Of a DNA stretch of 12,484 nucleotides, positions 1 through 12,484 are shown piece by piece. The DNA is taken from contig BTVV01000160.1 of assembly GCA_045863855.1 (NCBI GenBank), positions 1 to 12,484 of the forward strand, given 5' to 3'. The translations under genes were made by a program, and so were the position numbers. Within the stretch, counting starts at the first letter, position 1; each line of letters opens with the position of its first letter. The stretch is from Planctomycetota bacterium (GTDB lineage: Bacteria > Planctomycetota > SZUA-567 > H5-PLA8). The notes beneath the pieces are model-generated. The model searched no databases, was not told the origin of the DNA, and saw only the letters and a program-made list of their open reading frames with translations.

Positions 1-34
1 CGGGCCGCGGAAGCAGGGACGCCTCCGCGGCCCG
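1..34 (-). terminator. Putative intrinsic terminator or stabilising hairpin downstream of the ECF sigma/anti-sigma operon
   Basis: CGGGCCGCGGA (1-11) is the exact reverse complement of TCCGCGGCCCG (24-34). The stem extends with a G-U pair on the minus strand and lies 27 nt after the stop codon at 62. Any U-tract would fall outside the window. Confidence 0.5.
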
Positions 35-61
35 CGGGCCGGTCCATGGAATGGGCGGATT

Positions 62-1978
62 CTACTTCTTATAGAGCGGCATGTAGCGGTAGTAGACTTC
101 CAGGCACATCACGGCGAGCGCGGTGCTCATGACGCGGCTGTCGTCCGCGCCGGCGCCCGTCGGATCCCAGCTTCCGTCTTCGGCGCCGCCCACGCGTTGG
201 CCGGGCAGCAGCGCGCCCTTCATGCCATCGTTCCAAAGCTTCCAGTGTTCGCCGCCGCCTTGGAACATGCCCAGGGTGGCGTAGTAGCCGAAGTACAGAT
301 TGAAGGGGTACTTCTTGGGCACCAGCTTATTCTTCATGATGTTCAACGGTCCGGCGACGCCGACCTGATCGAGCGTCGCGCCGGCGATGTGCATGCGGCA
401 CAGCGCGCAGGCGGCCATCACGGCGTACGAGCCCTTGCCCTTTTCCACGGCTCCGGGGCTGCCGCGGTAGGCCATGCGCCCGCCTTCCCAATCGTAGTCG
501 GGAACCGGATCGGTGGCCTTGAACGCGCCAAGGTCCTGCCCGATGTTGAGCCAGTTGATGGTGCCTTCGAAGGCCGCCGGATCGACCATCAGGCCCGCGA
601 CCTTGCCCGACTTCAGGGCCATCACGTTCCAGGCCATGACCGAAGAGTCGTTGGTCTTGCCGCCGGGGCCGTAGTCCCAAGCGAGGCGGTCGGACTCGCC
701 GTCGAGATGAATCTGGCCGAACTCGACGCCCTTGATGGCCTTCTGCGCGGCGTCTTTGGTGCGCGGGATGCGGCCCATGCCGGCGGCTTCGCACAGCGCC
801 ATGGTGGCGATGCCTTGAGTGTAGTTGCTGGCGACCCAGCGCCCTTCATGCGCGCGCGCGCCCTGCTCCTTGCCCATGTTCTCGATCAGCCAGTCCACGC
901 CCCTGCGAACGTTATCCTTATACTTGCCGACTTTTTCCGTGTGCCCCGCACCGAGAAATGCCAGCAGCGCGAAGCCGGTCATGGCCACATCGCCCTGCAT
1001 CCCGGTGTGCTTGCCGCCGTGGCGCGCGTTGTCCCAGCGCCCGTCGGCTTCCTGGTTGCGGGCGAGCCATTCGAGGCCCTTGTCGACGGCCGACTCGGTA
1101 TCGCGTCCACCGCCGTTGATGATGGAAAGCTTGCGCCGGCCGCCGCCCATGCGGTGCCCGAAAGCTCCGCCGCCGCCGCCGCCCATGCCCAGCGCGGCGA
1201 CCGTACCGACGCCGCCCAGTTGCACGTCGCTGATCGCGTTCTCGTCGCCGGTGGCCGTGGCATCCTGCATTTCATCGGCCGTCTCGACGTGGTCGGCCAC
1301 CTCGACTTCTTCGTGGACGACAACCACTTGGTCGCTGACCTGCTCGGTCGGCGCTTCCACCTTGACCTGCTTGAAGATGTCGCGGGGCTTCTGCTCTTCC
1401 TTCTCTTCTTCCTGTTCGGGCGCGCGGGCCAGATCGGTCACGATCACGGTGTCGTTGACTTTGGCGCGGAGCACGGCCATGCCGATCAAGGTAATCAGCA
1501 TCAGCAGGAGCGCGTGAAAGGCTCCGCTGATGACCCACCACGGCGCGGCGCCCAGTGCGCCGGCCAGCCGCGAGGAGCCGTCCCCTTCGCCGGCTTCGGC
1601 GCCGACCAATTCCCCTTCGCCTTCGGGAGCTTCGCCCTCGGCCCACGGCAGCGGAACCTGATCGACGGAAACGTCCTCGGGCGCGAGGACTTCCTGCCCG
1701 CGGCCGGGCGTGCTGAGGCGTTCCATCTGCTGGTCGATGTCGGAGAGGCGCTGCGAAGCGCGCTCGTCGAAGCCGGGATTGATCTGCAGCGTCCCAATGG
1801 TGCGGTCCATCAGGCCGACGAGCTGCTGGCGGCGGTCGTAGGCCGCGCGGCAGTGCGGATTCGACTTGACCAGATGCTTCATGTACTGCGCTTCGGTGGC
1901 CGAGAGGTTGCCCTCGACGAAGTCCCGCAGCTTTTCCTGAAAGAGGGCCAGTTCCATCTGGGCGTTCGAACCGCTCAT
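62..1978 (-). CDS. Membrane-anchored anti-sigma-like protein with C-terminal prenyltransferase/squalene-oxidase-repeat (alpha/alpha barrel) domain, 638 aa
   Basis: RBS AAAGGAG at 1992-1986 and an ATGA overlap with the ECF sigma stop. The N-terminus LRDFVEGNLSATEAQYMKHLVKSNPHCRAAYD resembles a zf-HC2/ZAS anti-sigma domain. TM helix APWWVISGAFHALLLMLITLIGM, then acidic and Gly-rich linkers. QW-type repeats (AVDKGLEWLARNQEADGRW, GQRVGGAEDGSWDP) and the ending STALAVMCLEVYYRY are typical of planctomycete prenyltransferase-repeat proteins. Confidence 0.8.
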   Translation of the reverse strand: MSGSNAQMELALFQEKLRDFVEGNLSATEAQYMKHLVKSNPHCRAAYDRRQQLVGLMDRTIGTLQINPGFDERASQRLSDIDQQMERLSTPGRGQEVLAPEDVSVDQVPLPWAEGEAPEGEGELVGAEAGEGDGSSRLAGALGAAPWWVISGAFHALLLMLITLIGMAVLRAKVNDTVIVTDLARAPEQEEEKEEQKPRDIFKQVKVEAPTEQVSDQVVVVHEEVEVADHVETADEMQDATATGDENAISDVQLGGVGTVAALGMGGGGGGAFGHRMGGGRRKLSIINGGGRDTESAVDKGLEWLARNQEADGRWDNARHGGKHTGMQGDVAMTGFALLAFLGAGHTEKVGKYKDNVRRGVDWLIENMGKEQGARAHEGRWVASNYTQGIATMALCEAAGMGRIPRTKDAAQKAIKGVEFGQIHLDGESDRLAWDYGPGGKTNDSSVMAWNVMALKSGKVAGLMVDPAAFEGTINWLNIGQDLGAFKATDPVPDYDWEGGRMAYRGSPGAVEKGKGSYAVMAACALCRMHIAGATLDQVGVAGPLNIMKNKLVPKKYPFNLYFGYYATLGMFQGGGEHWKLWNDGMKGALLPGQRVGGAEDGSWDPTGAGADDSRVMSTALAVMCLEVYYRYMPLYKK

Positions 1979-2589
1979 GCTTCGGCTCCTTTAGTGTGGC
2001 TTTCCTGGGCGCGGGCCTTGACGGCATCGGCGGGCGCGGCGCTGGTGATGATCGACGCCAAGCGCTGCTCCAGCAGATGGTCGGCCCTCGACAACTGGCT
2101 CTTCACGGTGCCCAAGGGGATGCCGAGCTTGTCGGCGATATCCTGATAGGGGAGGTGTTCCCAGTAGCGGAAGACGACCACGGTGCGCAGGTCTTCGGGC
2201 AGGCTGTCGACGGCGCGCGCGACGACCTCGCGCATGTCGACCCGGTCGAAACCGCCCGTGGCGGCGCCCGGATCCTGCGTCTGTTCCTTGGCCGACTTCT
2301 CGCGTACCCGCCGCCGCCGCAAATCCAGCGCGTTGCAGCGATTGATCTGGCGGATCCAGATTCCAAGCTTCAGCGGATCCTGAAGCCGGTTCAGATCCCG
2401 GTACGCGCGGCACAAGGACTCCTGCGCCACGTCTTCGGCGTCCTGGAGGTTGCCCAGAACGGCGAAACCCTGGTTCACCAAGTCGGCCCGGAAACGTTCG
2501 ACCAACAACCAGAACTGATCGAGCGGCACACCGGCCGGATCGGCGCGGTGCCGGATCAACTGCTCGATCATCAGGTCCGTGGTCGGCAT
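1975..2589 (-). CDS. ECF (sigma-70 group IV) RNA polymerase sigma factor, about 204 aa
   Basis: Region 2 motif DAEDVAQESLCRAY...WIRQINRCNALDLRRRR and region 4 motif LPEDLRTVVVFRYWEHLPYQDIADKLGIPLGTVKSQLSRA. Start placed at ATG 2589 because GAGGGG lies 7 nt upstream (ORF track starts at 2667). Confidence 0.93.
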   Translation of the reverse strand: MPTTDLMIEQLIRHRADPAGVPLDQFWLLVERFRADLVNQGFAVLGNLQDAEDVAQESLCRAYRDLNRLQDPLKLGIWIRQINRCNALDLRRRRVREKSAKEQTQDPGAATGGFDRVDMREVVARAVDSLPEDLRTVVVFRYWEHLPYQDIADKLGIPLGTVKSQLSRADHLLEQRLASIITSAAPADAVKARAQESHTKGAEA

Positions 2590-2656
2590 GTCCGGTCCCC
2601 TCGGGCATTCACTCACCAAGCCGTCTGAAGAGTGCGCCGAGTTCTCGATATTTTGG

Positions 2657-2682
2657 AACGAACCCACAATTCCAGAAGTTCA
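2657..2682 (-). promoter_or_regulatory. Candidate ECF-dependent (autoregulatory) promoter
   Basis: Minus strand reads TGAAC-N17-CGTT, matching the AAC (-35)/CGT (-10) pattern of ECF promoters, about 70 nt upstream of the sigma start. Confidence 0.45.
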
Positions 2683-2819
2683 CATTGTGCAGGATTCGGG
2701 AAGGCATGGCAAGAGATGCTTGTGCGGAAAGATACGGTCCCAAGTCGGCGGCTGAGCGCATCGTCCCTATAGAAGGTAGAGGATCGAGGCATGCACTGGT
2801 GCGAAAAATGTTTGCTGCC

Positions 2820-2848
2820 TTGACACTTCCGAGAGGGCGACCTAGGAT
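2820..2848 (+). promoter_or_regulatory. Sigma-70-type promoter for the coiled-coil/BRCT gene pair
   Basis: TTGACA (2820-2825), 17 nt spacer, TAGGAT (2843-2848), upstream of RBS GGAGG (2912-2916). Confidence 0.65.
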
Positions 2849-2923
2849 CGCTAAGTCTTAATTTACCATGATTTTGGTGCGAAGCGCCCACGTGCTTTCG
2901 TGGGGCTGCTTGGAGGCTTGCCG

Positions 2924-4222
2924 ATGCAAGATAACGGCCCGCTGATCGCGTTGATTTTCCTGATTCTACTGACCGCCGTATTCGGTCTCTTCGCGCATCA
3001 GGCATACAACGAACTGATGGGCGACGACCCGGAGGGGTTGCAGGGCGAGAGCACCAAGCTGGAGGCCGAGATCAAGCGCCAGCGCGAAGATCATCTCGTG
3101 GTGGAAGACGAGATCCGCAAAGTACAGATCGAGATTGAACAGAAGAAGGTGGAGATTCAGACCCAGCTGAACCGCCGCGACCGCTTCACGCGCTTGGCGG
3201 AAGACTACGATTCCGCACTGAAAGGCCGGCAGGCGATCGTGAACTCGGGGCGCTTGAGCCGCGGCGCCGCCACCGAACTCGGCGTGAAGGTGGCCGAAAA
3301 GAAGGACGAGACGCGCGCTTCGATCCGGCGCGACGAGAACGACACGCGCGAACGCGCGGATGCGCAGGTTCGCGAAATGGAAACGGCTCGCGAAAACGCC
3401 GTGAATCGCGCGGTCGAAGAACGCAAGAAGCATGAGCAGGGACAGAAGACGTTCCGGATGCAGAAGAATCTGGAGCAGACGGAAGTCGACGAATACAAGC
3501 GCCAACTCGACGCGCTGACGCAGCGCGAGGTGGAGCGCGCGACGGTGATGACGGAGATCGACGGCAAGGTCATCCTGTCGGATCCGGTGAACAATACGAT
3601 CGTGGTGAGCTTGGGAACGGTGCACGGGGTTCAGAACGGCTTCCGCTTCGAGTGCTTCACCATCCGCCCAGGCAATCAGAAGGTCCACAAGGCGTTCTTG
3701 GAAGTGCGCAAGGCGCTGCCGAGCGTCTCGGAATGCATGGTGGTGGAGAAGAAGGTCGAGTTGCCGCGCGATCCGCTTTCGGATTACGTCGCGCCGGAGC
3801 CGGAGTACAAGTTCAGCCCGTATCACGAATCGGGCCGCACCGGCAGCCCGCTGCTGCCGCTTTCCGCGCGCCCCAAGGAAGCCATGCTGGGCATGAACAA
3901 GCTGGATCCCGTCGTCGAAGGCGACTTCATCCAGAACCCCTTCTACGCGCCGGGCAAGAAGTTCACCTACTACATCAGCGGCAGCAAGGCGATCGTACAG
4001 GGCGTGCAGAAGGGCGCGATCCACTACACCTGGCCGCACATCCAGCGCACGATCGAGTTCTACGGCGGCAAGGTGGTCGAGAACGTCGATCTGGGCGTCA
4101 ACTACATCATCGCGCAGAAGAACGCGAAAGACGACGACGCCGATCAGTTCTCGCGCGCCGTGACGCTGGGGCTGCCGGTGATCTACGAGTGGGAACTGTT
4201 CCGTTTCCTGGATCAGCGTTAA
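2924..4222 (+). CDS. Membrane-anchored coiled-coil protein with FlgT-C-like beta-barrel and C-terminal BRCT-like domain, 432 aa
   Basis: GGAGG lies 7 nt before ATG 2924. N-terminal hydrophobic helix PLIALIFLILLTAVFGLFA, then about 170 aa of E/K/R/Q heptad-rich sequence. EIDGKVILSDPVNNTIVVSLGTVHGVQNGFRFECF is FlgT-C-like. IEFYGGKVVENVDLGVNYII...AVTLGLPVIYEWELFRFL is BRCT-like. Confidence 0.8.
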   Translation: MQDNGPLIALIFLILLTAVFGLFAHQAYNELMGDDPEGLQGESTKLEAEIKRQREDHLVVEDEIRKVQIEIEQKKVEIQTQLNRRDRFTRLAEDYDSALKGRQAIVNSGRLSRGAATELGVKVAEKKDETRASIRRDENDTRERADAQVREMETARENAVNRAVEERKKHEQGQKTFRMQKNLEQTEVDEYKRQLDALTQREVERATVMTEIDGKVILSDPVNNTIVVSLGTVHGVQNGFRFECFTIRPGNQKVHKAFLEVRKALPSVSECMVVEKKVELPRDPLSDYVAPEPEYKFSPYHESGRTGSPLLPLSARPKEAMLGMNKLDPVVEGDFIQNPFYAPGKKFTYYISGSKAIVQGVQKGAIHYTWPHIQRTIEFYGGKVVENVDLGVNYIIAQKNAKDDDADQFSRAVTLGLPVIYEWELFRFLDQR

Positions 4223-4300
4223 GCCGCGCGTTTTCGCGGAACATGCCGGTAACTGGGCGAGCCGGGACATTCGACGGGTAACGGGGAAAGAAGCGCGACC

Positions 4301-6139
4301 ATGTCAACCAAACAAACGGTCATCTTCATCTTCATGCTCATCTTCCTCGCCGGGGCGCTGACGACCCTGGGGATGTGGTTCCACTATCGCCTCGAAGTGG
4401 ACATCAAGAAGAAGACCATGACGCAGATCGGCGCCGATACGACGCTCGCCAAGAAGAAGCGCGACGGCCTGCGCAAGCTGTTGAACAACCCGGAGACGCC
4501 GGACGCCGACCTTTCGGGCCGCCTACAGGCCGTGCAGAAGGAAGCCGACCAGAAGTACGCGGAAGTGTGGGTCGACCAGCTCGCCGTCGAACCCGCCTAC
4601 CGCGCCAAGCTGCCCGAGATCGAAACCGAATGGAAGGCCTCGGGCGGGGAATGGACGAAGATCTACGAAGAGTGGACGAAGAAGAACGGACAGATTCGCG
4701 AAGCGATGGACGCCTTCGTCAAGGTACAGGTCGACGCGATCAAGCGCGTGGACGACGCGAAGGTGACGCTGGCTCAGGAACTGACCACCGAAGAGACGCA
4801 GCGCAAGCAGTTCGTCGAAGAACATCACAAGTGGGAAGACGAATTGGGCGGGATTCGCTACGAAGGCGAGGATCTGCTCGACAAGATCAACCACGTGACG
4901 CGCGAGTTGGAGCGGACGAGCGAGCAGGAAGTGGACGGCCGGATCATTCACTCGACGCCGTCGCTGGCCTTGGTGACGGTGGATTTGGGCTATCAGCAAG
5001 GCGCGCAGAAGGGCATGCGCTTCCAGATCTTCTCGGGCAAGCACACCGCCCCGGTCTTGAAGGGCGAGCTGATGCTGACCGAGATTCACGCGGCGAGCAG
5101 CGAAGCGGTGGTGCTCCCGACGGTAGGCCGACCGAAGTGGGATCCCCAGACGGGCTACGAAGCGGCCGATCCGAGAATGCGCTATTCGCCGTTGAGCGCC
5201 ACGGGCCCCGAAGAATCCGAGCCGATGCCGCTCGAAAAAATGAAGAGCAAAAAGGATCTGGTCGACGAGATCCGGCTGGAACAGATCAAGCGCGAACTGG
5301 GCCCCGAAGAAGTGACCCGGATCCTGGAAGAGCGGGCCGCGCCGACGCAGCCCCCCCTGGCGCTGGGCAAGGGCTTCGATCCGATCATCGAAGGCGACTG
5401 GATCTCGAACACCGAGTTCGTGCGCATCGAGACGGAACGCGAATGGCAGCGCAAGAGCACCGAAGAGTTGATGAGCCTGAAGGAAATCAACCTCGGTTCG
5501 CTCACGCTGTACCTGGCGGAGACGATCCGGCCGTACCGGCGCGAATTCCTGAAGCGCCTGTGCGAACGCAACCGCTGCAAAGCCGTGGACGGCATGTCGC
5601 CGGACGTGGACTTCATCGTCACCACGACGACCACCGGCCGCGAAGACCTGCTGGAACGTGAACTGGAGCCGCTGAAGGAAAAGCAGGACGTCTCGCCCGA
5701 AGTGGCGGCCAAGCGCATCACGCTGGCGGCGCTGAAGGAAGGCCGTAAGTTCGGTTCGCGCGTACTGACCGAAGAGGAACTGGAAGCGTACTTCATCAAG
5801 CGCCAGCGCAAGAACGAGTTGGCCAAGGGTAAAGCGATTCAGCCCGGGCAGTACATCTTCTTCGTAGTGGGCGAAACGAGGCGCCGGTCGGTGCGCGAGA
5901 CCGGCCTGTACATTAAGGAACACGGCGGCGCGATCGCCGAATCGCTCGACGCCGGCGTGGACTACGTCGTCGTGGGCGCCGGCCTGACCGACGCGAAGCT
6001 CGATAAGAAGTCGGGGCGGCTGTACTACCCTGGCCAGGACGCTCCGGAAGGCGCCGTTCCGTTCTACGAAGCGATGAAGCAGATGGGGCTGAAGATCCTG
6101 CGCGAAGAAGAACTGGATCACTTCTTCGGCCAGGACTAA
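4301..6139 (+). CDS. Paralogous membrane-anchored coiled-coil protein with FlgT-C-like barrel and two BRCT-like domains, 612 aa
   Basis: N-terminal TM helix, coiled coil, then EVDGRIIHSTPSLALVTVDLGYQQGAQKGMRFQIF. Two BRCT-like units: CKAVDGMSPDVDFIV...FGSRVLTEEELEAYF and IKEHGGAIAESLDAGVDYVVVG...MGLKILREEELDHFF. Host-like GC-rich codon usage. Confidence 0.8.
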   Translation: MSTKQTVIFIFMLIFLAGALTTLGMWFHYRLEVDIKKKTMTQIGADTTLAKKKRDGLRKLLNNPETPDADLSGRLQAVQKEADQKYAEVWVDQLAVEPAYRAKLPEIETEWKASGGEWTKIYEEWTKKNGQIREAMDAFVKVQVDAIKRVDDAKVTLAQELTTEETQRKQFVEEHHKWEDELGGIRYEGEDLLDKINHVTRELERTSEQEVDGRIIHSTPSLALVTVDLGYQQGAQKGMRFQIFSGKHTAPVLKGELMLTEIHAASSEAVVLPTVGRPKWDPQTGYEAADPRMRYSPLSATGPEESEPMPLEKMKSKKDLVDEIRLEQIKRELGPEEVTRILEERAAPTQPPLALGKGFDPIIEGDWISNTEFVRIETEREWQRKSTEELMSLKEINLGSLTLYLAETIRPYRREFLKRLCERNRCKAVDGMSPDVDFIVTTTTTGREDLLERELEPLKEKQDVSPEVAAKRITLAALKEGRKFGSRVLTEEELEAYFIKRQRKNELAKGKAIQPGQYIFFVVGETRRRSVRETGLYIKEHGGAIAESLDAGVDYVVVGAGLTDAKLDKKSGRLYYPGQDAPEGAVPFYEAMKQMGLKILREEELDHFFGQD

Positions 6140-6158
6140 GCAGGTCCGAAGGAAGCGG

Positions 6159-6194
6159 ATGCACGCGGGCGGCCTTTCAGCCGCCCGCTTGCAT
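6159..6194 (+). terminator. Hairpin/putative terminator after the BRCT-like gene pair
   Basis: ATGCA-C-GCGGGCGGC-[CTTTCA]-GCCGCCCGC-T-TGCAT, 20 nt after the stop at 6139. The U-tract is weak. Confidence 0.5.
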
Positions 6195-6223
6195 TACATG
6201 CGTATCGAATCCCGTGGACTCGC

Positions 6224-6252
6224 TTGCCAGGTGCGAGCGATACCGGCATATT
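6224..6252 (+). promoter_or_regulatory. Sigma-70-type promoter of the tRNA-Gly locus
   Basis: TTGCCA (6224-6229), 17 nt spacer, CATATT (6247-6252), then a GC-rich discriminator-like GGTGCCTC. The -10 ends 14 nt before the tRNA 5' end. Confidence 0.55.
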
Positions 6253-6266
6253 GGTGCCTCTGGAGC

Positions 6267-6305
6267 GCGGGCGTAGCTCAGCGGTAGAGCGTTGGCTTCC
6301 CAAGC
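6267..6305 (+). tRNA. tRNA-Gly(CCC), 5' half only (truncated at integration junction)
   Basis: GCGGGCG-TA-GCTC-AGCGGTA-GAGC-G-TTGGC-TT-CCC-AA-GC gives the acceptor 5' strand, a complete D-arm and an anticodon loop with CCC at 6299-6301. The anticodon stem should continue CAA but reads ACC. No TTCGA T-loop, CGCCCGC acceptor strand or CCA follows. Confidence 0.9.
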
Positions 6306-6333
6306 ACCTGCGCGTATCGCAAAGTCCTTCGCG

Positions 6334-6398
6334 TGTAATAAGTTACATCATCGGCATACTCTTGATTTTGAGGTTTGGCATACTCGTTTGGCATACTC
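6334..6398. repeat. att-site arm region: direct repeats (putative integrase arm-binding sites) and a short palindrome
   Basis: GTTTGGCATACTC occurs twice in tandem (6373-6385, 6386-6398), with a third core GGCATACTC at 6353-6361. Palindrome TGTAA-TAAG-TTACA at 6334-6347. Confidence 0.75.
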
Positions 6399-6406
6399 AC
6401 CGCACC

Positions 6407-8575
6407 TTACTCCAAGTGAATTTCCGTTTTGTAGTTACCGCGATCAACTTTCCAAGAGACCTTTGATATGACTGTGCGGACGGGCATGGGGCGTCGTCCT
6501 TCAATGCCTATAGGTATAAGCTCTTTTACGGCCTGACCGGCACGGTAGCTGTCAACCAACCAGCCATCGATATGCAATACTCCGTTTTTCTGTAGGCGGC
6601 CCAGTTCATATTGGGTGCGTTTTACGTGGTTGGTCAGGAGCTCTTCATCAGTGGCCAATGCGTCTTCGCGGGAAGTTCGATCTACAGCCTGTTCCGTGCC
6701 GGGTAAGCTCTCAGGGTAAGGCCAAGAGTTCTTGCGTAGCCAAAGCCGATAGAGATTCCCAAGATCAAGGATCTGTGTTCGCTTTAGGCTTGGGTCGATA
6801 CGGTCTTGGTCGGGGAGCCCAGTCAAGACTCCTTTAAAATCGTAACCCGCGTGTGTGTGGTGCGGCATTCCGACTGATGCGGACAGGCGATAATCGGCAG
6901 GAATCGCGAGCGTCATGCGCACTTGCTGTTCGACGATATCATACGGGTCAGCCACGCTTGCATCAAAGGGCTCCCCATTCCAGCGCCAGGATCCGGGCCG
7001 TTCGTTCAGGGGTTCCATGCGAAGCTGGGGGATATAAATGGTCCCGTCGTCCCAAACCTCGTACTGATTCCCTTCGAAGGATGTTGTCCAGCCTCCAGCG
7101 GTGAGAACTTCAACGCGAAGAGGTAAACGCATCACGGAAAAGTCCTCGGCTCCCGAAAGCCAGGAAAGCAACTGAGGGAAAATCGGTCGGCTTTTCTGCG
7201 TCCTTGGAAAATTCTCGAAAGACGTGCCCTCAAGAAAATTCCAGGTCGGATTGATACGCCAAGCGCAAAGAACCTTGGGATATTTCATCCCGGCGCGAAT
7301 AAGGCCTAGGGCATCAGGTTCATTCATTTCGCCCCAGAATCGGCGAAACCCTTCAAATTCTTCAAATGTCCAGCATCGTATGATGTCGCCTCCTGCAGAC
7401 GATGCCCTACGCTCGATCATTACTCGGTCACCGCAACCCACGATTTGGGTTGCGATGTTCCGCGCGGATTCGTTGTAGTGGCCTCCCGACACGACGGGCG
7501 TTGCAAAAGTGGTCTTCGCATTCCCTCCCGCGGCAAAGGGAATCGAGATTCCATCGCGCTCGTAGCGCGTCGACACGGCTTCGAGTACGGCCGTCCAGCG
7601 ATCAATGCCGCTCCCGTCTTGGCTCCAGGCCGGACGTACGTTTACTGCCCAACCTCCGGCCGTCTTTAGAATGCGGTCCATCACATCGAGAAGCGCTAGG
7701 CCGTCCACGGCCATGTCACGCCCTTTTCGGGCAAAGCCAACGGTGTGGTTGTACTGGCCTACCGCGGCGTCGAATGTGAAGATGCTATATGTGTCTAGAT
7801 TACTTGCGAAAGTCTCGGGCCATTCTAGGTGCGCGGGGGAATGCGGCAGCCAGGGCCAGACTAAGCCATCTTCGGACTCCGGATTAAAGTCGGGTCCATA
7901 GTGTGTGCGGAAGTATTCGAAGATAAACCCAATCGTCCAATTTGTAGCGACATCGGTCGGCCGGGTGTCAGGATCGGGTACAGGCGCATCGGCGGCGCGG
8001 CCGTAGTCGGGATGAACGCTGAAGCACGGCTTCCCGTTCGCATCGAAGATGCAGTTCGGGCGTCCACCGGGATTGAAATGGGGCATCTCGCCCATTTCGA
8101 ATCGAGCGTAACCCGTCTGCGGATCGCGGACGTACCGGCCCTTGATCCGAACTTCCTCCAGGTCGTACCGATCATCCAACAATCGCACGCTCAGGCCGTC
8201 GTTGTCTTTATCGTGGGCAACGTCCACGATCTTCCCGATGAATGAGTAGTTTTCGAACTTTCCTTTCACGACCTTGGCGATGGCCATTCGGCGACCAAGC
8301 AATAAGTCTTTCATGGGTCCGTCGGGATTGAATGCTACCGTGTTCATACGATGATCTAATTCGCCGGCATTGGTTCGAATCGAGATACGCGCTTCTGCGG
8401 GCTCAGCCCCGTACTTCTCAATCTCGACGTATTGAACCGTCCAATAGTCCGAGGAAATGGTTGTTGTGCCGGAGGACTCGTCTCCTTCAACAACAGGCAC
8501 AATGATCATTGCGCGGAGCTGCGTTGCTCGTTTATCCACAACTCCGGCATTTTCGATGATTACATTTGCAGACAT
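6407..8575 (-). CDS. Phage-related protein, putative baseplate hub/tail-tip protein (Mu gp44/P2 gpD/T4 gp27-like architecture), about 722 aa
   Basis: Long clean ORF with GGAGG (8590-8586) 10 nt before ATG 8575. The N-terminal pattern FIGKIVDVAHDKDNDGLSVRLLDDRYDL and the C-terminal pattern GVLHIDG..YRAGQAV..VRTVISKVSWKVDRGNYKTEIHLE resemble the two ends of baseplate hub proteins. The CDS is well supported; the function is inferred. Confidence 0.55.
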   Translation of the reverse strand: MSANVIIENAGVVDKRATQLRAMIIVPVVEGDESSGTTTISSDYWTVQYVEIEKYGAEPAEARISIRTNAGELDHRMNTVAFNPDGPMKDLLLGRRMAIAKVVKGKFENYSFIGKIVDVAHDKDNDGLSVRLLDDRYDLEEVRIKGRYVRDPQTGYARFEMGEMPHFNPGGRPNCIFDANGKPCFSVHPDYGRAADAPVPDPDTRPTDVATNWTIGFIFEYFRTHYGPDFNPESEDGLVWPWLPHSPAHLEWPETFASNLDTYSIFTFDAAVGQYNHTVGFARKGRDMAVDGLALLDVMDRILKTAGGWAVNVRPAWSQDGSGIDRWTAVLEAVSTRYERDGISIPFAAGGNAKTTFATPVVSGGHYNESARNIATQIVGCGDRVMIERRASSAGGDIIRCWTFEEFEGFRRFWGEMNEPDALGLIRAGMKYPKVLCAWRINPTWNFLEGTSFENFPRTQKSRPIFPQLLSWLSGAEDFSVMRLPLRVEVLTAGGWTTSFEGNQYEVWDDGTIYIPQLRMEPLNERPGSWRWNGEPFDASVADPYDIVEQQVRMTLAIPADYRLSASVGMPHHTHAGYDFKGVLTGLPDQDRIDPSLKRTQILDLGNLYRLWLRKNSWPYPESLPGTEQAVDRTSREDALATDEELLTNHVKRTQYELGRLQKNGVLHIDGWLVDSYRAGQAVKELIPIGIEGRRPMPVRTVISKVSWKVDRGNYKTEIHLE

Positions 8576-8593
8576 AAGAAACATTCCTCCAGC

Positions 8594-8631
8594 CACTGGC
8601 GCCCGGTGTCGTTAATCACCGGGCGCCAGTG
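8594..8631. repeat. Perfect 15-bp inverted repeat immediately upstream of the hub-like gene RBS
   Basis: CACTGGCGCCCGGTG (8594-8608), loop TCGTTAAT, CACCGGGCGCCAGTG (8617-8631). Confidence 0.9.
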
Positions 8632-8789
8632 CAATCCGCTTTACCTCGCGGCTAAGGGCTAGGGCCTTGGTGGAGATTTCCAATCCCAAGCTGCGGGAGT
8701 TATGGGCGCCTGCCATCGCGATTGCTCGCGGGGGGCGCGCCTCACCCAAGCCACGTCCCGCTTGGCTGGGTTCTTGCCCCCGGAAGTTC

Positions 8790-9920
8790 TTACGAATTGA
8801 CTAGCGCGGGCGTCGGTGCAGCGGGCGGCGCTGGTGGCGCTTCCATCATGTGCCCACAGGAAATGCAGATGACTTTTTCGGGATTCTCAACGCTCTTTGC
8901 CAGGTGGCGCGACCAACAAGGCGAACGGGAACAATGCGGCTTGCCGTCCGCTCCGATCAAGACCTTGTTGATATCGGGCTCTGCGTAGGCCGCGCGCCGC
9001 GCTTCGGGCGGCGTGATGGTCTGGTGGGAGATTCCGATATTGGCGAAGGCGCTGGGTGGCGTATTGGGTGGGGCGTCCTGGGACATTCCACAAACGGAGC
9101 ACACCAGGGCTCCGCCCTCTGTATTTCGGCGCTGAAGCTTCCGCGACTGGCAAGATTTCCCCGCACAGCGCAAGGTTCCGTCTGCGTGCATCGTCGCCAG
9201 TTGATGGCTGGAAGGGGTCTCCACTGCGCCAGCGGCTTCCATCGCTCTGGCCTCGATAGCACGGATCCCATGGCGTTCCAGGGCGCTGATTTCGTTCGTA
9301 TGTTCGGAAAGCGCCGCGCGCAGGTCATGCAGCGTGGGCTTGGCCTTCCACATATTTTCGCTGGCGGCCTGCGCAATGAGTGCATGATCGACCGCCCAGG
9401 CATGGGGAACGGTCGCGCTATCTCGAAGCGCGAGCATTTGCAAAGAGAGTGTGGACAGCAGCGGATGGGTGCTCTTCGTCAGAGCCGGTTCGACCAACGC
9501 TTCACAGCCCAGCTTGGCCAGCGCTACAGCCAGGCCGGCAAGGTGAAAGGCTGCCTGCTTGGCCCACTTCGCGCGCTCGGCGGCGAGTTCGGCTCCCCGC
9601 TTTTCGAGCTTCGTGCGTCGGGCGTTCAACTCTTCTTCGGCAGCCTGATGCAGCGCTTGGCGCGTGGCTTCGATGGCGGTTTCGAGCGACTCCAGTTCCT
9701 CTTCCAGGACGGCTTGATCTTTGGCAAGAGCCTTGAGCTGGCTTTCGTCGGCTTTACGCCCCAAGATCGATTCGACGCGCAACGACCTGGCGTCGTCGCG
9801 CAAGGCGTCTAGTGTCTCGGTCTTTTTTCTGCGGATTTCCTCCAGGGACTTCAGCCGCGCAGCAACAGCGGCGGGTGTGGAGGACTCTCCGCGAATTAAG
9901 GAAATGAGTTTGTCGAACAT
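8790..9920 (-). CDS. Coiled-coil protein with two tandem C4 zinc-ribbon-like repeats, 376 aa (hypothetical)
   Basis: RBS AAGGAG (9936-9931) 10 nt before ATG 9920 (ORF track over-extends to 10091). N-terminal ~125 aa are heptad-rich. The C-terminus has two CX4C-X16-CX2C motifs. Confidence 0.75.
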   Translation of the reverse strand: MFDKLISLIRGESSTPAAVAARLKSLEEIRRKKTETLDALRDDARSLRVESILGRKADESQLKALAKDQAVLEEELESLETAIEATRQALHQAAEEELNARRTKLEKRGAELAAERAKWAKQAAFHLAGLAVALAKLGCEALVEPALTKSTHPLLSTLSLQMLALRDSATVPHAWAVDHALIAQAASENMWKAKPTLHDLRAALSEHTNEISALERHGIRAIEARAMEAAGAVETPSSHQLATMHADGTLRCAGKSCQSRKLQRRNTEGGALVCSVCGMSQDAPPNTPPSAFANIGISHQTITPPEARRAAYAEPDINKVLIGADGKPHCSRSPCWSRHLAKSVENPEKVICISCGHMMEAPPAPPAAPTPALVNS

Positions 9921-9974
9921 GGTATCGATTCTCCTTTGCAATGGGCGCCTTATGCGGTGCCTTCTAATACCGCG

Positions 9975-9999
9975 GCCCCGCCGTACTTCTGGGCGGGGC
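9975..9999. repeat. GC-rich hairpin between capsid and coiled-coil genes
   Basis: GCCCCGCC (9975-9982) pairs with GGCGGGGC (9992-9999), 9-nt loop, 24 nt after the capsid stop. No U-tract on the minus strand, so mRNA stabilisation or processing is more likely than termination. Confidence 0.5.
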
Positions 10000-10023
10000 G
10001 ACGGCTCCGAGCATCGGCAGTGC

Positions 10024-11391
10024 TTACGCGCCGGCGTTTTTGTGTATCCGGCGCCAATCCATGGCCTTTGCGGCGCATGCGAGGTGCGCACGGAAATCTA
10101 CCGAGAGCCTTTCGAAGGAGGGCATGGAGTCCATTACCGGTTCCTGCTGCCCGCTCAGGAAACAAACCTCGGCGGCGCCTTCGCCGTTCTCCCCGCCCGT
10201 GGCGAGGTACCAGGCCGTGGTGGAAACGTTCCCATGGAAACCGGTCTGGCTGAGACGCGGCTCCACTTCCACCTGGAACTTGTTTTTGAAAAACTGGTTT
10301 TCCGAGACGAAGAGGTTCGGATTGGCCAGGGTGTTCGCGAGGTATTCCAACTCGGGCGGGACGAGTAAGATTTTCGGCTCCACGTCGAGCGGTTCCGCCG
10401 CGAATTCTGTATCGTTCGGCGCCGGGGTGTTCGCCTGCTTGCGGAAGTCCGAGATGGCCACCGGCAAGCTGGTCGCGCTGAGGACCGAACCGGGGGTACC
10501 GGTGCGTAAGTTGCCGTGGTCGCCATGGAAAAGCGCGGTTCCATCGCTCATCGTCGGGTTGGCCAGTAAATGGGAATAGATCAGCCTGGCCGGGAGCACG
10601 TTTCCCGCTTTGCCGAATGGTCGAATCATGCGCTTCAGGGCTTCCAAGTCATCATTGATCATCATTTGAAGCGTGAAGCTGATCCGGCGCGCATAGACGG
10701 CGAGCGCAAAGGTTTCGGCGCGGTCGCTGAGTTTGGAATCGAAGATTTCCCCGTTCTCGCCCGTCTCGCGCAGCTGCGCGAAGTCCGAAAGCTGAACGCG
10801 TGAATTGGTTTTGAAGTCCTCGGCGCTGGTAACGGTCGCCCAGCTGCGCCAGGTTGGGCGCGAGGCGTTGTAGCCTTCCATCAGCGCCTTGTTGGCCAAT
10901 GCGGAAAGCAGGTTGGGCAGGTCCCCGCTGGCGTTGGCTGCGGCGGCTCGGTATTGAAAATTGGGGCTGAGGACTTCGCGAACGGCGTCGGACGGTGCCA
11001 ATCGCCACGGGGTGTATCCTGCGGAACGAAGCATCTCCTGGCACATTTCGGGGAGACGAAGGCGCATCGGCTCGATGCCGTCGCCGCTGGTGTCGTGCCT
11101 GTAGCCAGCGCGCGCGACAAGGCCACGCTGCATGGCCGTGAATTTCCGCTCGGCGCGGCTGGGTCCTACTTCAAAGTCTCGCATGGGTGGTTCCTTTCTG
11201 AATGCGGTGTTTAAACGCCGCTTTTTGGGTTTCGGATTGTGGTCGCGCATGCGCGCTGGCTTTGGTTCGTCGTCGTCAGGTTCGGCCGGTAAGGGAGTCG
11301 GCGGCACGGCGCCTGGGGGAATGTTTCTCCCGGCGCTGCTTTCTGGCGTGACAACGCGGGTTCGGAGTGGTTTGGGCTGGAACTCTTTCAT
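10024..11391 (-). CDS. Phage major capsid protein (HK97 fold; Mu gpT-like / capsid moiety of ClpP-capsid fusions), 455 aa, or 386 aa from the alternative start at 11184
   Basis: Family motifs SGDLPNLLSALANKALMEGY, TWRSWA...DFK, GENGEI, ETFALAVYARRISFTLQMMINDDL, NPTMSDGTALFHGDHGNL, PKILLVPPELE, VEPRL, TAWYL and AKAMDWR. Confidence 0.9.
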   Translation of the reverse strand: MKEFQPKPLRTRVVTPESSAGRNIPPGAVPPTPLPAEPDDDEPKPARMRDHNPKPKKRRLNTAFRKEPPMRDFEVGPSRAERKFTAMQRGLVARAGYRHDTSGDGIEPMRLRLPEMCQEMLRSAGYTPWRLAPSDAVREVLSPNFQYRAAAANASGDLPNLLSALANKALMEGYNASRPTWRSWATVTSAEDFKTNSRVQLSDFAQLRETGENGEIFDSKLSDRAETFALAVYARRISFTLQMMINDDLEALKRMIRPFGKAGNVLPARLIYSHLLANPTMSDGTALFHGDHGNLRTGTPGSVLSATSLPVAISDFRKQANTPAPNDTEFAAEPLDVEPKILLVPPELEYLANTLANPNLFVSENQFFKNKFQVEVEPRLSQTGFHGNVSTTAWYLATGGENGEGAAEVCFLSGQQEPVMDSMPSFERLSVDFRAHLACAAKAMDWRRIHKNAGA

Positions 11392-11942
11392 GGAATCGAC
11401 TCTACGTTCGTTTTTGTGGGGTGATGCAAAAGGCTGCGCGAAGGCTGCAAAATGCCGCGGTCGGGCTCTTCGATTTCGTCAACGAGGTACCATTTACCGC
11501 CGGGGGCCGGCAGGGCAGGAAGCGTTTTGTCTCGGAGCGCTCGCGCGACGGTTCGTTCGTGCTGTCCCCGCTCCCTGGCAATTTGCTTGATGCTTTTGGC
11601 CTGCCTATTCGCGCGATCTACGGTGGCAGCAGTGGCGCCGGCGTCGGTTACCTGGATGTAGTGTGGCTCCTTCTCGCCTATGCGCTCAAGCCATCGCATT
11701 CTGAAGGCGAGTTCCCAGGCTTCGGCGAGCAGCATTTCGTAGGCTGCACGGGTGTTGGGCTCGGCGAGGCGAAAATAGTTTTCCAGCCATTCCTTGACGA
11801 ACTCTTCCCGCGGCGGGTCCAGAACGGCGCGGCCCTCCAGCTTCGCATTGATAGGCAGGAAGAGCACGTTACGAACGATCCGGCGCGCGCGGTCCAGGAC
11901 GGGCGCGCGAAGCCATTCAAAGTAAGCTCGGTCTGTATCCAT
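11388..11942 (-). CDS. DNA-binding protein with C-terminal excisionase/MerR-like (HTH_17-type) winged helix, 184 aa
   Basis: KSIKQIARERGQHERTVARALRDKTLPALPAPGGKWYLV fits the Xis/AlpA-like HTH plus wing pattern. Starts 6 nt after the upstream stop; its stop overlaps the capsid ATG (ATGA). Confidence 0.6.
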   Translation of the reverse strand: MDTDRAYFEWLRAPVLDRARRIVRNVLFLPINAKLEGRAVLDPPREEFVKEWLENYFRLAEPNTRAAYEMLLAEAWELAFRMRWLERIGEKEPHYIQVTDAGATAATVDRANRQAKSIKQIARERGQHERTVARALRDKTLPALPAPGGKWYLVDEIEEPDRGILQPSRSLLHHPTKTNVESIP

Positions 11943-11948
11943 GTTCTG

Positions 11949-12484
11949 CTACTTGCCCAATGCCTTCACTAGGCGTTCGGCTTCGACATGGTTGATCGGT
12001 TGATCTTCCAGCTTGCGTGCGCGCCCTGCCAATAGCTCTGCGTTTTGCCCAGCGGCTATTCGGCGGTGGAATTCTTCATCCACGCATCGCTGGAGCGCCC
12101 GGTTTCCGGGCGCCTCAAAGTTTCCCAGGCGGCTATCAAACGCAATCCAGATTGCCCCGTCCACGAACTGGTAAACCCATTGTGGCGGCGGGCGCCGTCG
12201 CTTCGTAGGCGGTGGCGGTGGTGTTTTCGCGGTACGGCTAGCCAGATTGATCGGCGCTTCGTCCGCGTGGGGGATACCGTCTCGGCGGTGGCTGTGGTGG
12301 TGGATTATTCGCGTGGGTTGGGCGTGAATTTCCATGCTCTGCACGGGCGGCGAGCTATCAACCGGTGGGGCTGGCGCCGGCCGGACCGTCGAGGTGGCAG
12401 CGGAACGGAACGGCATCGGAACGGAAGTGCCGATTTCACGCGGCGTGACTCGCGGAAACGCCGTGAGTTGCACGCCTGCGGACT
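11949..12484 (-). CDS. Hypothetical Pro-rich protein, probably 5'-truncated by the window edge
   Basis: The frame is open from the window edge to the TAG at 11949. It is co-oriented and tightly packed with the downstream gene. A disordered Pro-rich region precedes a ~75 aa folded-looking C-terminus. Confidence 0.55.
   Translation of the reverse strand, partial: SAGVQLTAFPRVTPREIGTSVPMPFRSAATSTVRPAPAPPVDSSPPVQSMEIHAQPTRIIHHHSHRRDGIPHADEAPINLASRTAKTPPPPPTKRRRPPPQWVYQFVDGAIWIAFDSRLGNFEAPGNRALQRCVDEEFHRRIAAGQNAELLAGRARKLEDQPINHVEAERLVKALGK

Follow-up and report, generated by a model that had tools for sequence, protein, structure and literature searches.

The window analysed here is the whole of contig C160 (12,484 nucleotides) from a planctomycete metagenome-assembled genome that is 94% complete (G000, the source genome), and it raises the question of what kind of integrated element would carry a capsid gene and a baseplate hub gene near one of its ends. 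The visible part of the element (the island) is about 6.2 kb long (positions 6306–12484) and continues past the contig end. We found five minus-strand ORFs, all of them uninterrupted and in the order given by an earlier note: a Pro-rich ORF (11949–12484) that runs off the contig end, a 184-aa HTH DNA-binding protein (11388–11942) with weak matches to HTH_17, phrog_3254 and BcepMu gp16, a stand-alone major capsid protein of 386 aa (10024–11184, within an ORF reaching 11391), a 376-aa coiled-coil protein with two C-terminal zinc ribbons (8790–9920; domain search and predicted structure) and, next to the att end, a 722-aa hub (6407–8575). These frames are open as the note had stated, but 'tightly packed' was too strong, given gaps of 103 bp between the capsid and coiled-coil genes and 214 bp between the coiled-coil and hub genes. 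That the island lacks the remaining virion module, as the note had it, holds for the visible 6.2 kb and was established for that part only. None of the five visible genes matched a small terminase, and promoter and terminator counts were at chance level. The HTH protein, which had no homologue in the 61 other genomes of the class, may by its sequence be either a regulator or a packaging factor.

The att end claimed earlier was confirmed in detail. A displaced 5΄ half of the host tRNA-Gly(CCC) forms the left att site (6267–6305, plus strand) and contains a 12-bp att core, GGCTTCCCAAGC (6294–6305, plus strand). Compared with the empty site of a sister species (G002), where the intact tRNA-Gly(CCC) is followed by trx/dnaK, the junction was exact, with identity stopping at 6305. 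Three integrase arm-type repeats, GGCATACTC, were detected by motif search at 6353–6398 on the plus strand (6353, 6377 and 6390), and no other cluster of this kind occurs in the source genome (6.9 Mb). The island thus has a defined att site complete with core and arms, as is expected of an integrated PICI; the hub gene ends 102 bp from the att site and lies inside the att boundary. The source genome contains 3΄ halves of tRNA-Gly(CCC) on contigs C144 and C129. Its assembly lacks the half of the island that would hold integrase, replication and packaging genes: no other contig overlapped the island contig end (blastn), and neither a second arm-repeat cluster marking the far end nor an integrase of this att family was found there. 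Contigs from two other sequencing runs reach 632 and 1448 bases beyond the window end. Excised or circular joints were not seen in four contig sets, a kind of data that cannot show their absence, and the depths of island and flank contigs were alike, which says nothing of copy number.

The capsid was identified by profile matches to PF25209 (E 7e-35) and phrog_4523 (E 6e-80). It aligned to positions 278–634 of the 634 positions of NF045541, namely the capsid half only of a protease-scaffold-capsid fusion, and it lacks the protease and scaffold domains that its relatives carry. Its identity to the 17 closest relatives was 42–54%, and 13 of these are fusions of 673–793 aa. The start codon is likely Met70, which has its own RBS and gives the 386-aa product. 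The 69 preceding in-frame codons (11185–11391, minus strand) encode a Pro/Lys/Arg-rich extension that begins at an ATGA coupled to the HTH stop, has a negative codon score and is missing from four other short capsids (P0006, P0009, P0018 and P0020); it may or may not be translated. The five protease-less close capsids share one start column and do not form one clade (AU test, P = 0.002; IQ-TREE LG+G4, 21 rows), and at the sequence level protease-less capsids have arisen repeatedly. The other four may nevertheless be split-gene phages or gene-calling artefacts. Close matches in our searches for the genomic contexts of short capsids included fusion forms, and the 26 loci from the context search for these capsids and hub P0123 encoded a capsid in no case. 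Stand-alone PF25209 capsids were also present in two islands with integrase and primase (G427:C18 and G024:C16). Of 112 conserved columns the island capsid retains 92, fewer than any other in the set of 18, and terminal branches were longer in short capsids (0.26–0.93) than in the others (0.06–0.51).

The last gene of the island is, by its predicted structure, a baseplate hub of the gp27/VgrG fold (gp27/VgrG/Tal). It matched no Pfam or NCBIfam family and reached a phrog only at E 0.43. Its AlphaFold model (pLDDT 84), in contrast to these profiles, matched four structures in Foldseek, with E values from 6e-10 to 2e-4: an eCIS VgrG, the Bxb1 tail tip, the MuSo2 43-kDa protein and Mu gp44. Both protein identities proposed earlier, capsid and hub, were therefore upheld. 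We collected 227 relatives of the hub. It keeps 63 of 67 family-conserved columns, its nearest relative is 41% identical, and it shows 36–37% identity to the hubs of phages G062–G064. In a FastTree phylogeny with long branches, in which 54 of 69 rows came without genomic context, it clustered with a lone hub on C140 and with P0123 (support 99), and the hubs of islands required three changes. The 214-bp spacer in front of the hub (8576–8789, minus strand) is non-coding and structured. It contains a perfect 15-bp hairpin (8594–8631) directly upstream of the hub RBS, its predicted fold pairs the RBS, and none of 200 shuffles folded as well (z = –4.77); the contrast with phage controls is weak, as these are coding DNA. 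Rfam returned one snoRNA match, at chance level.

We then asked which phages carry both parent genes. Phages G062 and G063 encode a capsid fusion (46% identity) and a hub (36–37%), the hub being the last virion gene beside attP. Temperate phages of this type, with fused capsid and hub, are candidate helpers on the basis of these genes. In the related phages inspected (G003:C233, G061, G062 and G063), the gene order was constant: terS-terL-gpW-portal-protease/capsid-neck-tube-tape measure-baseplate-hub-fibre. The island could be a complete but rearranged temperate phage with its terminase, portal, protease and tail genes in the unassembled part, given that the contig stops at the window end, that orphan large-terminase fragments occur in the source genome (C201, C212, C249 and C276) and that a tRNA-Lys element in G007 has a capsid fusion on one contig and, across a gap, a tape-measure homologue with a hub on another. 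We consider this the least probable of the readings. The canonical virion order is missing around the island's capsid and hub: upstream of the capsid there is neither portal nor protease, and neck and tube genes are lacking between the two, so that the layout is not that of an intact prophage; moreover, the terminase fragments resemble a different prophage type (G007:C139), and the HTH and coiled-coil proteins have no match in related phages. A co-resident prophage with homologous capsid and hub, which the earlier note had proposed to look for, was not found in the source genome, where we obtained one PF25209 match, no PF05136 portal and no PF05876 terminase.

The coiled-coil protein is predicted to form a helical hairpin at about residues 16–136, with helices continuing to 231. 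In a test against 12 phage and prophage loci nothing matched it, and our searches gave a single homologue (25% identity, E 5e-6), which lies in another small island (G003:C67) in the order HTH-like ORF, coiled-coil homologue, prohead protease (PF04586) and long helical protein. Fold searches gave generic hairpins only, with no specific match. The nearest Atlas family was Psu (0.76), a lead only; BLAST against P4 Sid and Psu gave E values of 1.4 and 49 (no similarity), Pfam Psu matched nothing in the island, and P4-like satellites' Psu-Delta-Sid operon is not present there. Coiled coils in G000 C22, G000 C46, G003:C166 and G007:C22 resemble it in position only.

The closest counterpart of the island lies in another genus. 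Island G003:C166 is situated 5΄ of an intact tRNA-Gly(CCC), in the same 5΄-half configuration, and its arm motif is nearly identical to ours; arm repeats of the form GG(C/T)ATAC(T/C) beside the same att core were found in this island, G003:C33 and G005:C15. It encodes, in this order, an integrase (phrog_216), a ParB-like protein, a primase-helicase (1e-60), a small terminase (phrog_57, 5e-19), an HTH protein, a coiled coil, a Zn finger, an 81-aa ORF and a lone hub, with no adjoining baseplate gene. On this gene content, G003:C166 is a PICI-like island. Its hub and ours were aligned by hhalign (99.9%) at 20% identity and are, as far as their sequences tell, of separate origin. The spacer before its hub is structured as well (z = –6.0, 60 shuffles), and the two spacers could not be aligned (83 of 300 shuffles as good). 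Our island and G003:C166 end in a hub, and captured tail genes also end other islands of the host family: a tape measure in G000 C22 and C46, and both in G007:C183. With the half expected to hold integrase, replication and packaging genes left unassembled, the satellite status of our island rests on these relatives, and it appears satellite-like in view of its att family, the PICI-like sister island with a lone hub, the island of the coiled-coil homologue and the phages with both parent genes. We therefore judge it somewhat probable that the visible part belongs to a PICI-like satellite, as its distal end, with a Ccm-like capsid homologue and a PLE11-like replacement hub. The phage-satellite assignment of the earlier note is borne out to this extent, whereas its 'new type' went too far, since capsid homologues and a satellite hub have each been published already (PMC10085698, PMC8569155, PMC6092414, PMC12987554).

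We compared the island with described satellites. Capsid homologues that stand alone belong to the core components of PICIs (PMC10085698) and occur in SaPIbov5 (Ccm; PMC8569155) and in EcCICFT073 (c1499) and PmCI172 (PMC6092414); our island likewise has a capsid-morphogenesis gene, the PF25209 capsid. It resembles PICI type A of SatelliteFinder in being tRNA-integrated, with one capsid homologue and neither portal nor protease visible (PMC10085698), and, through G003:C166, in having a sister island with integrase, primase-helicase and small terminase. However, it has a hub, and tail genes are 'forbidden' in the SatelliteFinder PICI model (PMC10085698). The scaffold has been lost from its capsid, which descends from a protease-scaffold-capsid fusion, whereas SaPIbov5 Ccm retains an 87-aa delta domain (PMC8569155). 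Satellite control of tail assembly was first shown in 2026, in Vibrio PLEs, with the mechanism left open there; in PLE11, a satellite-encoded hub, 41% identical to that of the helper (36–37% here), is incorporated in chimeric tails, but it is accompanied by a tape measure and a chaperone, and the PLE uses the capsid protein of the helper (PMC12987554). In contrast, our island has its own capsid, its candidate helper family is temperate, and its visible 6.2 kb contains no tape measure (phrog_4704 only at E 0.37) and no chaperone. In PLEs generally, the tail operon consists of a tape measure and a chaperone, with the hub optional. The PLE class is characterized by capR, repA, nixI, lidI, tcaP and a Vibrionaceae host, and the host of our island is not one of the Vibrionaceae. 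EPIPs of Mycolicibacterium aichiense are also small elements with a capsid gene and one tail-assembly gene, but carry a tape measure, scaffold, head-tail adaptor, stopper and serine integrase, with no hub (PMC12822802). Like our island, cf-PICIs have their own capsid gene, but they encode portal, protease, large terminase and head-tail joiners (PMC10085698), none of which is in the visible part of the island, where the capsid is flanked by the HTH and coiled-coil genes and not by a cf-PICI operon. P4 shares a long helical protein beside a morphogenesis gene, but has neither capsid nor hub. In the literature searched we found no description of a capsid and hub paired in the absence of a tape measure, nor of islands like this one in the host group. 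Syntenic elements in Planctomycetota, as the earlier note had envisaged, did not turn up: the exact trio of capsid, coiled coil and hub was seen once, here, among 62 genomes of the class and 401 of the phylum.

If the island is such a satellite, its family would use the tRNA-Gly(CCC) anticodon loop as its integration site, with the tRNA restored at the far, integrase end. An active helper of the phage family might trigger excision and expression of the HTH, capsid, coiled-coil and hub genes. Having neither protease nor scaffold, the capsid should not build heads alone; it might co-assemble with the fused capsid of the helper, by analogy with SaPIbov5 Ccm, while the coiled coil could serve as a scaffold or stabiliser, yielding heads suited to island DNA. 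The island hub might replace that of the helper when tail assembly starts, by analogy with PLE11 BhuB, and the chimeric tails could favour satellite particles or alter tail-tip partners. The helper would supply terminase, portal, tube, tape measure and fibres. We put forward only tentatively the fuller proposal that the particles are doubly chimeric (own scaffold-less capsid, own hub without tape measure), that family members swap a single tail-initiation gene and that a hub alone suffices for tail takeover. Alternatively, the capsid domain and the foreign hub might act as dominant-negative subunits that poison the assembly of helper heads and tails and so protect the host, while playing no part in particles of the island itself. 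This idea is favoured by the capsid's loss of scaffold and protease and its divergence, the greatest in its set, by the longer terminal branches of short capsids and by the existence of satellite-encoded tail-assembly inhibitors (PMC11364771; Rta, PMC12987554). We nonetheless regard it as improbable: Rta is a novel 80-aa protein and no full-length hub (PMC12987554), the island hub is conserved to the same degree as phage hubs, and the small terminase of G003:C166 points to packaging.

A capsid-type PICI might instead hold the hub as an unused passenger, gained together with the att end when the island recombined with a phage of the helper family, or remaining from an earlier prophage at the site, in an element that may be immobile. 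Passive capture is conceivable because the hub lies one or two genes from attP in G003:C233, G062 and G063, and the attP of G063 includes a tRNA 5΄ half, as in the island. The structured spacer, moreover, parts the hub from the operon, and the island sequence showed no difference between copies (four runs compared, 24 listed). Open frames (n = 4) exclude old decay only, the chance of survival being 0.17 at a neutral divergence of 1% and 0.03 at one of 2%. On the other hand, the baseplate gene preceding the hub and the fibre gene following it in phages have left no trace at the island, another island in this att family has, at the corresponding end, a lone hub unrelated to this one, and the arm repeats are of the island family's own type. 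We consequently hold a passenger hub to be unlikely, if well short of negligible.

If the satellite reading is true, tail control would be generalised by islands in an unrelated phylum that have repeatedly captured a hub, a tape measure or the two together, and a hub alone would be its minimal case. Current satellite finders, which forbid tail genes (PMC10085698), would overlook such elements or take them for prophage remnants. Likewise, the repeated trimming of a protease-scaffold-capsid fusion to a bare capsid at one position would offer a testable route to Ccm-like remodellers. As for nucleotide composition, GC3 was 0.59 in the hub gene and 0.76 in the capsid gene; we considered this gap as a sign of separate captures and rejected it, since the phages have the same gap.

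The source genome of the window (G000) is a 6.9-Mb MAG. Positions 1-6266 hold host genes, namely an ECF sigma factor and two BRCT proteins; the latter, at 2900-6139, are membrane-anchored paralogues with a coiled coil and with BRCT domains at the C terminus, and occur in 5/5 family genomes tested. The 5' half of tRNA-Gly(CCC) follows at 6267-6305, and in a sister species of the same genus (G002) this tRNA is intact, the island (6306-12484) is absent and sequence identity with the window ends at 6305. Three GGCATACTC repeats lie beyond the att core of the island and form the sole such cluster in the G000 genome. From the 5'-half site, the empty G002 site and the repeats, we therefore concluded that the island leaves the host tRNA 5' half behind and that its far end should restore the tRNA. 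This far end is unassembled, a search of G000 for an integrase of the same att family found none, and contigs of two other runs continue 632 and 1448 bases past the window end. Two tRNA-Gly(CCC) 3' halves on G000 contigs C144 and C129 are the ends of further tandem islands with a different integrase type. Two integrase families use this tRNA as a hotspot, and the 3' half is duplicated by one of them and the 5' half by the other; the hotspot was seen in G000 at C160 (the window), C240, C144 and C129, with at least three tandem islands, and the contig ends G003:C33 and G005:C15 belong to the same set.

The earlier note described five uninterrupted island ORFs, and all five were found with open frames, which rule out decay beyond a few percent of divergence but not more recent decay. 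Its hub-like protein (722 aa) proved to be a baseplate hub by fold; the nearest Atlas clusters are mostly from Planctomycetota, which suggests a planctomycete-like host, 63 of 67 family-conserved columns are retained (range 0.80-0.99 over 39 rows), and identity to the nearest relative is 41%. The 376-aa coiled-coil protein consists of a helical hairpin and two zinc ribbons, and a search for a specific fold match to it returned none. The similarity of the capsid is confined to the C-terminal half of protease-scaffold-capsid fusions: among the 17 relatives closest to it, 13 are such fusions, 673-793 aa long, and the other four are short forms (382-409 aa) that start at the same alignment column as Met70 of the island capsid. 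This capsid retains 92/112 conserved columns, the lowest of 18 but well above its own 54% overall identity. A single clade of the five short capsids, which have longer end branches, was rejected (AU P = 0.002; 21 rows, 382 columns; genomic context for one of the five). The island and its host flank are identical in the four runs compared (aquaculture, sediment, soil and sludge metagenomes). We consider it unlikely, though deserving of some weight, that the hub is a passenger or the island an immobile mosaic.

Among five phage records representing a candidate helper family, G062 and G063 encode a fused capsid with 46% identity to the island capsid and hubs with 37% and 36% identity to the island hub. 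The hub is present in three of the five (G062, G063 and G064, apparently identical as a phage to G063) and was not found in the phage fragments G061 and G065. Gene order is canonical in these phages and in G003:C233: a baseplate gene of 520-540 aa overlaps the hub, and a fibre-like gene, attP and an integrase come after the hub. The attP of G063 contains a tRNA 5' half. No trace of the baseplate or fibre-like gene was detected beside the island hub, and the island HTH and coiled-coil proteins had no match in these phages. A rearranged phage seems improbable. The earlier note proposed a search for co-resident prophages with homologous capsid and hub genes; the G000 assembly contains no such helper.

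A hub profile search of 62 genomes of the class yielded 16 matches in 10 genomes, corresponding to 15 distinct loci. The upstream baseplate gene is absent at four (the window island, G000:C140, G007:C183 and G003:C166), G003:C151 and G004:C267 are too close to contig ends to classify, and the remaining loci lie inside virion clusters. The key sister island for interpreting the window island is G003:C166, which sits 5' of an intact tRNA-Gly(CCC) with arms GGTATACTC. It encodes an integrase, two small regulators, a ParB-like protein, a primase-helicase, a small terminase and an HTH protein, and then an 84-aa protein, a coiled coil, a zinc finger, an 81-aa protein and the hub before the contig end; its assembled part includes no capsid gene. 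The G003:C166 hub has 20% identity to the hub profile and belongs to a different hub lineage, whereas the window hub groups with the C140 hub and P0123. G011 and G014 also have the G003:C166 integrase family at tRNA-Gly(CCC), and fragments of it occur in G010 and G003:C33. The hub of this PICI-like island (G003:C166:119-3325, L158) carries a 320-residue Ala/Gly/Lys-rich C-terminal extension. At G000:C140:12264-15330, an intact tRNA-Ala(CGC) is followed by repeats, a small zinc-finger gene and a second lone hub, after which the contig ends; this hub is directed away from the tRNA and is the nearest relative of the window hub within G000.

Across 401 genomes, the island coiled coil has a single homologue, encoded in island G003:C67, where an HTH-like ORF precedes it and a prohead protease and a 552-aa protein, tape-measure-like by eye, come next; no capsid match was found in that island, which lies at tRNA-Leu(CAG) (about 28-42 kb; L151, L152) and has, besides the protease, a scaffold-like fragment (by eye). 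Capsid matches numbered 53 in 39/401 genomes, five being open frames of <500 aa: the window island, two islands in which a bare capsid accompanies integrase and primase, one scaffold and capsid island, and one prophage-like cluster. No hub was found beside the other four. Small islands that combine a primase and a single PF25209 capsid with either a serine or a tyrosine recombinase were observed at G024:C16, G024:C56, G427:C18 and G022:C83. The strongest new point, which lies outside positions 6306-12484, is that islands of one host family have repeatedly captured tail-initiation genes. The ends of islands G000:C22 and G000:C46 carry a coiled coil and captured tape-measure genes. In G007, attL and attR of tRNA-Lys share a common core on two contigs with a gap between them; one carries an integrase, a capsid fusion (38%) and a primase, and the other a hub together with a homologue at the tape-measure position (E = 6e-17). 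The PICI-like C22 island (37519-51848) comprises an integrase, primase, Pro-rich, HTH, coiled-coil and acidic proteins and a helper-family tape-measure-position homologue. In an HK97-like prophage, G000:C67:1-32507, the tape measure and the tail gene after it have homologues in the C46 island (E = 4e-9 and 8e-4), which makes this prophage a candidate helper of that island.

The att site, gene identities, sister islands and candidate helper family constitute the established part of the mechanism. By analogy, the scaffold-less capsid should depend on helper head proteins, like Ccm, which sits at pentamers and forms no capsids by itself (PMC8569155), and the hub, 36-37% identical to that of the helper, could take its place, like BhuB of PLE11 (41%), which replaces the helper hub in chimeric tails (PMC12987554). 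The coiled coil, which resembles Psu or Sid in architecture alone, may act as a scaffold or stabiliser, and a structured spacer may gate translation of the hub. On balance, we lean toward a satellite using both capsid and hub; that these proteins serve purely to poison the helper is improbable.

The observation behind the suggestion of a new satellite type is real, and the island is probably a satellite. It would function along known lines, as a PICI of the capsid type that carries a PLE-like hub. The island breaks the PICI model, in which tail genes are banned (PMC10085698), lacks the cf-PICI head operon in its assembled part and is distinct from EPIPs (PMC12822802). Among the matches listed, no published satellite combined a capsid with a lone hub or named Planctomycetota. 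Similar cases may be present in the gene maps of PLE11 Extended Data Fig. 10 and in the SatelliteFinder tables; PMC6092414, PMC12409344, PMC11364771 and PMC9618062 were also consulted.

Elsewhere in G000, a terminase-portal-scaffold-capsid-tail-hub cluster (C1:46283-62598) adjoins tRNA-Leu(TAG). Its codon use is host-like, neither an integrase nor a replication gene is visible nearby, and it resembles a gene transfer agent or a domesticated prophage. It is syntenic in three species (G002:C1, about 2532-2550 kb; G001:C2, about 1270-1284 kb, without portal and scaffold), and similar clusters occur in G007:C106, G005:C58, G024 and G026. The same contig carries an array of about 27 tRNA genes at 24500-28200.
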